DNA of 64,000 nt from Escherichia coli (GTDB taxonomy: Bacteria > Pseudomonadota > Gammaproteobacteria > Enterobacterales > Enterobacteriaceae): assembly GCF_003334815.1 (NCBI RefSeq), contig NZ_QOWO01000001.1. One strand, written 5' to 3'. The notes beneath the pieces are model-generated. The model did not search any database, was not told the DNA's origin, and saw nothing but the letters and a program-made list of their open reading frames with translations. The translations under genes and the position numbers were made by a program. Below are positions 59,483 to 61,519 of the stretch, piece after piece (the stretch's first letter is position 1; each line of letters begins with the position of its first letter).

Positions 59483-61519
59483 ATGGTACCCTCAACATTT
59501 TCTCGTTTGAAAGCCGCGCGTTGTCTGCCTGTTGTTCTGGCAGCCCTGATTTTCGCCGGTTGTGGCACCCATACTCCCGATCAGTCCACTGCTTATATGC
59601 AGGGCACGGCGCAGGCTGATTCTGCCTTTTATCTTCAGCAGATGCAGCAAAGCTCTGATGATACCAGGATCAACTGGCAATTACTCGCCATTCGTGCACT
59701 GGTGAAAGAAGGTAAAACCGGGCAGGCGGTTGAGTTGTTTAACCAACTACCGCAAGAACTGAACGATGCTCAGCGTCGCGAGAAAACACTGCTGGCGGTA
59801 GAGATTAAACTGGCGCAGAAAGATTTTGCTGGCGCGCAAAACTTGCTGGCGAAAATCACACCTGCCGATTTAGAACAAAACCAGCAAGCGCGTTACTGGC
59901 AGGCAAAAATCGATGCCAGCCAGGGGCGTCCTTCCATTGATTTACTGCGCGCGTTAATTGCTCAGGAACCGCTGCTTGGCGCGAAAGAAAAACAGCAGAA
60001 TATTGATGCCACCTGGCAGGCGCTCTCCTCCATGACTCAGGAACAGGCGAATACGCTGGTGATCAACGCCGACGAAAATATTCTGCAAGGCTGGCTGGAT
60101 CTGCAGCGCGTCTGGTTTGATAACCGTAACGATCCCGACATGATGAAAGCCGGGATCGCCGACTGGCAGAAACGTTATCCGAACAATCCGGGCGCGAAAA
60201 TGCTGCCAACGCAGTTGGTTAACGTAAAAGCGTTTAAACCAGCCTCGACCAACAAAATCGCCCTGCTGTTGCCACTGAATGGCCAGGCAGCGGTATTTGG
60301 TCGCACTATTCAGCAAGGCTTTGAAGCGGCGAAAAATATCGGCACTCAGCCAGTGGCAGCTCAGGTAGCTGCCGCACCTGCCGCAGACGTAGCTGAACAA
60401 CCTCAGCCGCAAACCGTGGATGGCGTTGCCAGCCCGGCACAAGCCTCGGTTAGCGATCTGACCGGTGAACAGCCTGCAGCCCAGCCGGTGCCTGTAAGCG
60501 CCCCGGCGACAAGCACCGCAGCGGTAAGCGCACCCGCAAATCCATCCGCAGAGCTGAAAATCTACGATACCTCATCACAACCACTTAGCCAGATCTTAAG
60601 CCAGGTTCAGCAGGATGGCGCGAGTATTGTGGTCGGTCCGTTGCTGAAAAATAACGTTGAAGAGTTGCTGAAGAGCAACACTCCGCTGAACGTACTGGCA
60701 CTGAACCAGCCGGAGAATATCGAAAATCGCGTCAATATTTGTTACTTCGCGCTTTCACCGGAAGACGAAGCGCGCGATGCAGCGCGTCATATTCGTGACC
60801 AGGGTAAACAAGCGCCGCTGGTGCTGATCCCACGCAGTTCATTGGGCGATCGCGTAGCCAATGCGTTTGCGCAAGAGTGGCAGAAACTGGGCGGCGGCAC
60901 CGTTCTGCAACAAAAATTTGGTTCCACCAGCGAATTACGCGCGGGTGTTAACGGCGGTTCTGGTATTGCTTTAACGGGTAGCCCGATTACTCTCAGAGCG
61001 ACAACCGACTCCGGCATGACGACCAACAATCCAACGCTGCAAACCACGCCAACCGATGACCAGTTCACCAATAATGGCGGTCGTGTCGATGCGGTGTACA
61101 TTGTGGCAACGCCGGGTGAAATCGCTTTTATCAAACCGATGATCGCCATGCGTAACGGTAGCCAGAGCGGTGCAACGCTGTACGCCAGCTCCCGCAGTGC
61201 GCAAGGGACCGCTGGCCCGGATTTCCGACTGGAGATGGAAGGCTTGCAGTACAGCGAAATCCCGATGCTGGCAGGCGGTAATCTACCGTTAATGCAGCAG
61301 GCACTCAGCGCGGTGAATAACGATTATTCACTGGCTCGCATGTATGCGATGGGCGTCGATGCCTGGTCGCTGGCAAATCATTTCTCACAAATGCGCCAGG
61401 TTCAGGGTTTTGAAATCAACGGTAATACCGGAAGCCTGACGGCTAACCCGGATTGCGTGATTAACAGGAACTTATCATGGCTACAGTACCAACAAGGTCA
61501 GGTAGTCCCCGTCAGTTAA
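59483..61519 (+). CDS. lpoA: Outer-membrane lipoprotein LpoA, activator of PBP1A (678 aa)
   Basis: Internal ATG at 59483; lipobox LIFAGC; TPR-like N-terminal region and an Ala/Pro/Gln-rich linker. Confidence 0.9.

Follow-up and report, generated by a model that had tools for sequence, protein, structure and literature searches.

The outer-membrane lipoproteins RcsF, Pal and NlpD carry N-terminal linkers like that of LpoB. The LpoB tether links its lipid anchor to the globular domain in series, and its reach comes from an extended length of ~145 Å (PMC4632607). LpoA binds and stimulates PBP1A, a literature result obtained with exactly the protein studied here (PMC3060616, PMC8536351). One stretch of LpoA resembles the LpoB tether in being disordered, Pro-rich, of low complexity, periplasmic and part of a class A PBP activator that is itself an outer-membrane lipoprotein. 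The same residues of the same protein, N285-P351 of E. coli LpoA, were named 'region 1' by Jean et al. (2014, Structure 22:1047), who reported them to be flexible by NMR, with resonances assigned and observable in the full-length protein, and disordered by IUPred, remarked on their absence from H. influenzae LpoA and listed their function as unknown (PMC4111904). The LpoA of H. influenzae (5KCN, 5VAT, 5VBG, 3CKM) has the same two-domain architecture as that of E. coli and, together with the type I binding proteins of the LivJ/LivK fold, the same C-domain fold; however, it has ~7 residues (…KGNSTIP…) where the E. coli protein has ~70, and region 2, the second flexible insert, is also absent from it.

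The window analysed here is a stretch of 64,000 nucleotides from E. coli. On sequence, the gene at 59483..61519 (+) is identified as lpoA, encoding the LppC family outer-membrane activator of PBP1A; its 678 codons and stop follow from the translation and from the RefSeq records for 15 loci of E. coli. The mechanical open reading frame (59453..61519, +) opens at a TTG at 59453, and annotation places the start at the ATG at 59483. That the gene is lpoA, as the preliminary description had it, is borne out by the match to Pfam LppC (PF04348), which comes in two pieces (2.3e-85 and 3.9e-49) separated by the insert and is broken at residues 338/350, and by the 100% identity of residues 27-256 to the E. 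coli K-12 N-domain structures 2MHK/6DR3. In those 15 annotated loci the neighbourhood is rsmI <- -> lpoA-yraN-diaA, and the order rsmI, lpoA, UPF0102 (yraN) is common to contigs of Salmonella, Enterobacter, Citrobacter and [Enterobacter] lignolyticus; the diaA-like frame of the window (61892-62482) is read from its list of open reading frames alone.

The protein begins with a lipoprotein signal peptide and lipobox (59483..59563, +; …LAALIFAG-C27-GTH…, read from the translation), the Cys of which is nearly invariant in an alignment of 117 homologues. According to PDB matches and an AlphaFold2 (AF2) model, this is followed by an N-terminal all-helical TPR-like domain (residues 28-256; 59564..60250, +), with helices at pLDDT >90, and by a C-terminal type I periplasmic-binding-protein-like domain. 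The model, built on the 117-sequence alignment, has an overall mean pLDDT of 87. It matches the full-length H. influenzae structures 5VAT/5KCN with target-normalised TM-scores of 0.72-0.81 and the C-domain structure 3CKM with a TM-score of 0.89; Leu/Ile/Val-binding proteins were also matched. Region 1 (60335..60535, +) is an insertion in the alpha1-beta2 loop of the C-terminal domain, as placed by the published account (PMC4111904), HMMER and AF2. Region 2 (S493-N531; 60959..61075, +), taken from the same account (PMC4111904), has pLDDT values of 73/46/54 in AF2 and a pN/pS of 0.18, and falls in a gap against H. influenzae LpoA. The disordered insert has been known since 2014, and the window carries the K-12 allele, its insert DNA being 100% identical to those of MG1655 and W3110.

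The peptide that drew attention to this locus comprises 66 residues (292-357; 60356..60553, +, by exact string match, within 60340-60560). It consists of 30% A, 15% P, 12% V, 11% Q and 11% S, with a single L and no K, R, H, aromatic residue, I, M or C. As a reference we took 15,858 windows of 66 amino acids, cut from every stop-to-stop segment of 200 or more amino acids in the 64-kb window. With an entropy of 2.98 bits, 56% A+P+Q and 1.5% bulky hydrophobics, it is equalled in entropy, A+P+Q or scarcity of hydrophobics by only 5-6 of the 15,858; the most extreme window overlaps the LpoA segment, and the next distinct locus, at 3.17 bits, is clearly milder. The compositional bias claimed in the preliminary description was therefore confirmed, the segment being the lowest-entropy 66-residue stretch of the window. 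Its prediction of disorder was checked and also held: block-mean pLDDT falls to 54/45/33/43/45/52 over residues 291-350, values below 50 cover 295-299, 304-334 and 336-345, and the published NMR and IUPred data agree (PMC4111904).

The position of the segment in the fold bears on the role first proposed for it, namely that of a linker whose length, tuned by variation between strains, sets the reach of LpoA to PBP1A. Its disorder by NMR and AF2 fits such a role, and a comparable mechanism is documented for the N-terminal Pro-rich region of LpoB (PMC4632607). However, in the AF2 model beta1 spans 258-263, alpha1 270-286 and beta2 357-362, and pLDDT drops below 50 between alpha1 and beta2, so that the segment is a disordered expansion of the short alpha1-beta2 loop in the first lobe of the C-terminal domain. 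Lying between two elements of a single domain rather than between anchor and domain or between domains, it is a closed loop and, unlike the LpoB tether, does not stand in series with anchor or domains and adds no end-to-end length. Judged by fold topology and by short-loop homologues, the loop ends at 285 and 357 are probably adjacent in the fold; anchored side by side, they would leave the loop unable to lengthen LpoA. The true interdomain linker is K249-K258 (60227..60256, +; Figure 2D and text of PMC4111904), which was reported as rigid and has pLDDT values of 92-97 in AF2. The interdomain junction was rigid by NMR, AUC and SAXS, and the maximum dimension of 146.8 Å fits two folded domains (~70 + ~60 Å) placed end to end (PMC4111904); a review likewise states that LpoA needs no flexible region for its reach (PMC4632607). 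The span from the outer membrane to PBP1A is supplied by the rigid two-domain body of LpoA.

Comparison across the family points the same way. In a set of 105 diverse cluster representatives, the stretch corresponding to K284-L358 measures 5-14 amino acids in about 80, which is the ancestral-type loop at the alpha1-beta2 position, and 40-104 amino acids in most of the closer relatives (> ~40% identity). H. influenzae LpoA has no counterpart to the insert (the HMMER alignment pairs E. coli 291 with H. influenzae 259, and 351 with 252). A reach-setting linker of the LpoB type would need a comparable length in homologues; here most of them, H. influenzae included, do without the insert. Loop expansion occurs in part of the order Enterobacterales, across several of its families. 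Expanded loops are found in Sodalis (96 residues), Xenorhabdus (79), Ca. Hoaglandella (66) and Ca. Fukatsuia (45), and short ones in Limnobaculum (10), Plesiomonas (11) and Mergibacter (6); among Enterobacterales the range is from 9 to >130 residues. Length is thus strongly variable between genera and also within Enterobacter, as a reach linker might be. The Enterobacter alleles encode 708-748 amino acids, and all their differences fall in the C-terminal half of region 1, with steps such as PAPx/QPAx units and, in one case, an insertion of ~33 amino acids that repeats adjacent sequence.

Within E. coli the picture is different. All 99 evenly sampled genomes (samples of 40 and 59) share one segment length, and among 5,425 complete genomes a large indel is present in one, a figure that comes from match ranking, in which the duplication allele ranks last and rare indels of 3-9 nt could escape. 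The lengths of protein clusters were also used, and together with the complete genomes they give LpoA a length of 678 amino acids in practically every E. coli. Its protein cluster in E. coli includes a partial S. sonnei entry, and the UniRef name covers eight Enterobacteriaceae taxa. The length variation that had been expected between strains was thus nearly missing in E. coli, apart from the one large indel and a few deletions each on a single contig, while that between genera and within Enterobacter is real. With 5,424 of 5,425 complete genomes free of a large indel, and with the placement and family data above, the reading of the segment as a reach linker is largely refuted, and we regard it as very improbable. 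Annotation of the segment as a linker across the periplasm should be avoided; such logic belongs to LpoB.

The rare length alleles indicate how the loop changes. In strain AST85 (NZ_AP043644.1), 30 nt flanked by GTAAGCGCCCC repeats are duplicated exactly and in tandem, which extends LpoA to 688 amino acids. The duplication site lies in two degenerate tandem units of 30 nt or 10 amino acids (60494..60553, +), identical at 20 of 30 nt. These units came to light solely through the AST85 allele; TRF found no tandem repeats at the segment, and a general repeat scan gave just short, weak pairs. There are also a few in-frame deletion alleles, each on a single contig; among them, P0008 (WP_139512217.1, 638 amino acids) is without residues 293-332, with one AAQ kept, and P0006 is without residues 293-326. 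A direct repeat, GCAGCTCAG at 60356..60364 (+), has its partner GCAGCCCAG at 60476-60484, 120 nt downstream, and the 120-nt deletion of P0008 appears to be bracketed by these GCAGCYCAG repeats, judging by the protein alignment, from which the coincidence of the endpoints is deduced. Such indels probably arise through replication slippage between short direct repeats.

An aligned comparison of the inserts divides the loop into four. A short and variable lead rich in Ala and Gln comes first, followed by a conserved motif of 13-15 residues (313-327), then by a hypervariable tract of Pro, Ala, Thr and Gln, and last by a conserved (S/T)-A-N-P-x-A-E that leads into beta2. The hypervariable tract diverges among relatives via indels of short repeated units. 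The motif island (60419..60463, +) follows the family pattern V-x-S-P-[SA]-x-A-x-[VT]-x-[DE]-L-T (315-327). V315, S317, P318, A321, L326 and T327 are invariant in all 16 sequences of an alignment that includes Escherichia, Citrobacter, Salmonella, Pseudescherichia, [Enterobacter] lignolyticus, Enterobacter and Lelliottia. By regular expression, the motif or its VxSP[SA]xA core is present in 114 of the 120 best matches, and the complete motif in 111. It is not recognisable in the inserts of distant Enterobacterales such as Sodalis and Xenorhabdus.

We evaluated selection on the loop with 15 E. coli alleles. The motif has a pN of 0 and a pS of 0.13, which equals that of the folded parts, and its flanks have a pN of 0.056. 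None of the 16 motif codons varies non-synonymously, compared with 16 of the ~44 codons in the flanks (Fisher p = 0.003). In the insert minus the motif pN/pS is 0.24, compared with 0.03 in the folded parts. Lys and Arg are both missing from 107 of 113 inserts. The non-motif parts of the loop are hence under relaxed yet still purifying selection, and Lys and Arg are nearly excluded from them.

These values have to be weighed against the simplest explanation, which is that the loop is a neutral, functionless low-complexity expansion, a filler made by slippage and tolerated on a surface loop. A pN/pS about 7-fold above that of the folded parts, the wide divergence of length and sequence between genera, the many LpoA proteins with a short loop and the natural in-frame deletion and duplication alleles are all what such filler would give, and the literature lists the function of the region as unknown (PMC4111904, PMC4632607). 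Yet a pN/pS of 0.24 is well below 1; the motif keeps a pN of 0 at normal pS and persists in at least seven named genera despite synonymous turnover; Lys and Arg are avoided although one base away from Gln, Pro and Thr codons; and 678 amino acids are fixed in essentially all E. coli. Taken together, the reduced pN/pS, the conserved motif, the exclusion of Lys and Arg and the fixed length in E. coli indicate constraint, and we consider purely neutral filler possible but rather unlikely.

The constraint on the motif could in principle act on the nucleotide sequence, the island being, for example, an internal promoter or a small RNA, or belonging to a regulatory structure or an antisense gene. An antisense frame of 162 amino acids (59954..60442, -) does overlap the start of the segment. 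It spans just the first third of the segment, however, lies mainly over the TPR-coding part and is unannotated in RefSeq; given its absence from the annotation of all 15 RefSeq loci, we took it as a mechanical artefact. A search of both strands of 59300-61700 against Rfam at E <= 1 found nothing, the motif is as diverse at synonymous sites as the remainder of lpoA, and 7 of 8 motif columns with an identical residue change codon between genera, using more than one codon across five genera. A nucleotide-level element is accordingly extremely improbable.

At the protein level, the motif lies in the lowest-confidence stretch of LpoA (pLDDT 33-43), where AF2 forms two tiny helical turns (318-320 and 323-327). 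An intramolecular pseudo-ligand was considered and rejected, as the AF2 monomer shows no docking of the motif onto LpoA. The island resembles short linear motifs in disordered regions: residues 313-327 form a stretch of 13-15 residues constrained at the protein level, set between fast-evolving, indel-rich, disordered flanks, although it matches no named motif class and is assigned to this group by its conservation pattern only. Its retention at the protein level across Enterobacteriaceae suggests a displayed binding motif. The natural alleles P0006 and P0008 delete the motif, so that cells can evidently live without it. As a counter-argument this carries little weight, because lpoA is dispensable when PBP1B-LpoB is intact; PBP1A-LpoA is essential in strains that lack lpoB or mrcB.

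Bulk properties of the loop might matter more than its sequence. It could act as an entropic, acidic 'bristle' whose width and charge at the domain junction tune passage through peptidoglycan pores, with the motif incidental. Disorder, a net acidic charge and a lack of Lys and Arg mark the loop in nearly all Enterobacteriaceae, and in the AF2 topology the alpha1-beta2 loop would exit beside the N terminus of beta1, near the domain junction. A pore-sensing model for Lpo proteins has been published (PMC8824477), and a bristle fits the idea of a molecular ruler or sieve. This explanation leaves the sequence-specific conservation of the motif unaccounted for and has to accommodate a roughly two-fold difference in length between genera with similar envelopes. 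We judge it improbable.

We favour, as probable and with moderate confidence, the explanation that region 1 is a disordered alpha1-beta2 loop, shaped by slippage, that acts as a display arm for the conserved motif. The flexible acidic arm would offer the motif to an accessory partner in the periplasm that is peculiar to Enterobacteriaceae, and the topology suggests that this motif-bearing loop, free of Lys and Arg, is placed near the junction of the two domains of LpoA. Candidate partners, drawn from published work, are PBP4/PBP7, which are endopeptidases, NlpI or PBP1A itself; complexes of PBP1A-LpoA with PBP4/PBP7 and NlpI have been proposed and partly reconstituted (PMC11211486). The loop would be dispensable for core activation of PBP1A, which the loop-less LpoA proteins presumably also carry out. 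More tentatively, and on conservation in sequence, residues 315-327 may be an undescribed docking motif specific to Enterobacteriaceae that recruits another cell-wall enzyme, PBP4, PBP7 or NlpI, to PBP1A-LpoA, or that makes a second PBP1A site; we regard this as a possibility somewhat on the unlikely side.

As a discovery the insert itself carries little weight, having been described and measured by NMR in 2014. Full-text searches of the literature on the function of region 1 returned nothing beyond 'function unknown', and Sardis et al. (2021) do not mention the loop. What is added here to the known region 1 is its near-fixed length in E. coli, the slippage alleles, the relaxed selection, the exclusion of Lys and Arg and the embedded motif, all of which are absent from the published LpoA accounts searched. 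The motif island and the composition free of basic residues provide a testable handle on a region for which no function is listed. Should its ligand prove to be a hydrolase or PBP1A, the motif would bear on how enterobacteria coordinate the synthesis and cleavage of their cell wall, and if it is truly a docking motif, region 1 would couple peptidoglycan hydrolysis to synthesis.

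Pfam LppC, identity to 2MHK and 6DR3, and the rsmI and yraN neighbours confirm the gene as lpoA. [quoted passage not shown] An AlphaFold2 model computed with 117 homologues as input (pTM 0.82, mean pLDDT 87) reached target-normalised TM-scores of up to 0.81 with full-length H. influenzae LpoA and 0.89 with 3CKM, and also superposes on binding proteins of the LivJ/LivK type. The mechanical ORF (59453..61519, +) extends 10 codons further upstream (59453-59482), to a TTG; we adopted the ATG at 59483, the start in PDB constructs and in the RefSeq annotation of E. coli loci, which yields a 678-aa protein. 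In every RefSeq locus fetched, rsmI is divergent and yraN lies downstream. The 3' end of lpoA overlaps the start of yraN by 43 nt (61477-61519), as it does in Salmonella, Enterobacter, Citrobacter and [Enterobacter] lignolyticus loci. A 162-aa antisense ORF inside lpoA (59954-60442, -) appears in the mechanical ORF list only; it is annotated in no RefSeq locus, and supporting evidence for it was not found.

The low-complexity peptide corresponds exactly to LpoA residues 292-357 (60356-60553, +), and at the DNA level the insert shows 100% identity to K-12 MG1655 and W3110. The peptide contains 30% Ala, 15% Pro, 12% Val, 11% Gln and 11% Ser, and is devoid of Lys, Arg, His, aromatics, Ile, Met and Cys. 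Its compositional bias ranks at the top of 15,858 66-aa windows covering all long stop-to-stop segments in the 64 kb: no more than 5-6 match it in entropy, Ala+Pro+Gln content or scarcity of bulky hydrophobics, and the most extreme overlaps the segment itself; entropy is 2.98 bits here, versus 3.17 at the next distinct locus. The proposed disorder is borne out by AlphaFold2 pLDDT block means of 54, 45, 33, 43, 45 and 52 over residues 291-350, and by published work. In full-length LpoA, Jean et al. (2014) assigned NMR resonances to two stretches missing from the H. influenzae protein, region 1 (N285-P351; 60335..60535) and region 2 (S493-N531), both flexible by NMR and with IUPred >0.5 (PMC4111904). 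The segment is this already published region 1 and of low interest as a discovery; a role for the flexible regions was not given in that study (PMC4111904), nor found in later literature.

We then considered where the segment lies in the fold. HMMER pairs E. coli residue 291 with H. influenzae 259 and residue 351 with 252, so that about 60 E. coli residues have no H. influenzae counterpart. The model has beta1 at 258-263, alpha1 at 270-286 and beta2 at 357-362, the whole alpha1-to-beta2 stretch being of low confidence. Taken together, alignment and model topology identify the segment as an expanded alpha1-beta2 loop within the C-terminal domain, in its first lobe. A place between alpha1 and beta2 excludes a connection from lipid anchor to domain or between domains; the interdomain linker is K249-K258, which is rigid (PMC4111904). 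LpoA is elongated, and its maximum dimension of 146.8 Å fits its two folded domains, of ~70 and ~60 Å, end to end (PMC4111904).

Among 105 aligned full-length representatives of 50%-identity clusters, the K284-L358 stretch (E. coli numbering) measures 5-14 residues in ~80, including essentially all at ≤40% identity, and 40-104 residues in most closer relatives. Long loops occur in Sodalis (96 aa), Xenorhabdus (79 aa), Ca. Hoaglandella (66 aa) and Ca. Fukatsuia (45 aa), and short ones in Plesiomonas (11 aa), Limnobaculum (Budviciaceae; 10 aa) and Mergibacter (Pasteurellaceae; 6 aa). Since some 80 of the 105 are short, the ancestral state is a short loop with adjacent ends, and in these alignments the expansion is limited to part of the Enterobacterales. 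A closed loop within the C-terminal domain can add nothing to end-to-end length, so the segment is irrelevant to LpoA span and the proposal that it sets the reach to PBP1A is not supported; that mechanism belongs to LpoB, whose logic the preliminary description appears to have transferred to LpoA. One protein named Enterobacter kobei (WP_426009050.1, 598 aa) has a region 1 loop of 12 residues and a shortened region 2; it is ~59% identical to E. coli LpoA, versus ~70% for other Enterobacter proteins (708-748 aa), and may be a foreign allele or a mis-assigned taxon.

Length variation between strains had also been expected. With a 501-nt lpoA query, 5,425 of 5,426 complete E. coli genomes gave a match; one genome has no lpoA match whatever, and one has a second, plasmid-borne matching place. 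The span was exactly 501 nt in 40/40 evenly spaced matches, and identical in 59/59 with a 271-nt query that had the insert at its centre. The lowest-ranked genome with the latter, AST85, has 30 nt duplicated exactly and in tandem (SAPAASTAAV twice; NZ_AP043644.1 1295-1354, corresponding to 60494-60523) between GTAAGCGCCCC direct repeats, for a 688-aa LpoA; this is the sole large length variant among the 5,425, and its allele background is rare and divergent. Of the 10,877 distinct sequences in the main E. coli protein cluster, the 13 full-length members listed are all 678 aa long. In-frame deletion alleles are few and occur on one contig apiece: P0008 (WP_139512217.1, 638 aa) lacks residues 293-332, a deletion flanked by GCAGCYCAG repeats that lie 120 nt apart, P0006 lacks 293-326, P0004 lacks 3 aa of the segment, and the deletions of P0012 and P0013 are larger and take out folded elements as well. 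From genus to genus, LpoA measures 677-678 aa in Escherichia, 680-686 aa in Salmonella and Citrobacter, and 706-748 aa in Pseudescherichia, Enterobacter and Lelliottia, a difference almost entirely within region 1. Length differences among Enterobacter-named proteins of 708-748 aa (P0083-P0113, P0043) are restricted to the C-terminal half of region 1, past the motif described below, and come in steps of, for example, PAPx/QPAx units, with one ~33-aa insertion repeating adjacent sequence. The Pro/Ala/Thr/Gln tract is hypervariable, relatives differing by indels of short repeated units, and slippage between short direct repeats may be the source of these indels. The expectation therefore holds within Enterobacter and across genera but fails in E. 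coli, where 99 sampled matches are invariant; overall, the preliminary description is partly supported.

The insert evolves faster than the folded parts of the protein. Across 15 distinct E. coli alleles, picked for divergence in the insert region so that absolute diversity, though not ratios, is biased upward, pN/pS was 0.03 in the folded parts, 0.17 in region 1 as a whole and 0.24 in the insert without the motif. An unbiased comparison agrees: over the 271-nt insert window, identity is under 95% in 17% of genomes, versus 0.35% over a 501-nt N-domain control. The loop evolves more quickly, yet not neutrally. Region 2 (60959-61075, +; residues 493-531) resembles region 1 (pLDDT 73/46/54, pN/pS 0.18); its H. 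influenzae counterpart has only ~18 residues, and two rare E. coli alleles, P0004 and P0011, carry a 16-aa in-frame deletion there. A rare divergent allele family (16/5,425 genomes) shares only ~89% identity over 501 nt with the K-12 allele. Divergent alleles L001, L011, L012 and L015 were compared with 60200-60700; since L012 is a mosaic, K-12-like ahead of the motif and divergent-type past it, recombination breakpoints probably lie within the insert.

Within this loop, residues 313-327 hold a conserved motif, V-x-S-P-[SA]-x-A-x-[VT]-x-[DE]-L-T. Despite the indel-rich insert, V315, S317, P318, A321, L326 and T327 are invariant in 16/16 aligned sequences, named Escherichia, Citrobacter, Salmonella, Pseudescherichia, [Enterobacter] lignolyticus, Enterobacter and Lelliottia, with several lacking a genus name. 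The full motif or its VxSP[SA]xA core occurs in 114 of the 120 best matches (full motif in 111), the exceptions being deletion alleles and one Citrobacter entry, and representatives of 58-64% identity have the pattern too. Codons 313-328 carry five polymorphisms among the E. coli alleles, all of them synonymous, with a pS (0.13) equal to that of the folded parts, versus amino-acid variation at 16 of ~44 insert codons outside the motif (Fisher p = 0.003). A nucleotide-level element was rejected as the source of this conservation, and no Rfam match was found at E ≤ 1 on either strand of 59300-61700. Because seven of eight identical-residue motif columns use more than one codon across five genera, the constraint acts on the peptide, not the DNA. 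Lys and Arg are both absent from 107/113 inserts of the closest relatives, a further sign of constraint, as single-base changes from Gln, Pro and Thr codons yield them. The motif speaks against region 1 as neutral filler, as do the exclusion of Lys/Arg and the fixed length. A rival reading, an entropic bristle tuning passage through peptidoglycan pores, leaves the motif unexplained.

Altogether, region 1 is an Enterobacterales-restricted surface-loop expansion holding a conserved motif island. The loop may serve as a flexible, acidic arm displaying the motif, for which the AlphaFold2 model gives no docking onto LpoA itself (motif pLDDT 33-43). The displayed motif would then bind a putative accessory partner, candidates being PBP4/PBP7, NlpI and PBP1A itself; PBP1A-LpoA complexes with PBP4/PBP7 and NlpI have been proposed and partly reconstituted (PMC11211486). 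Of the leads here, the conserved motif alone merits a small experiment.
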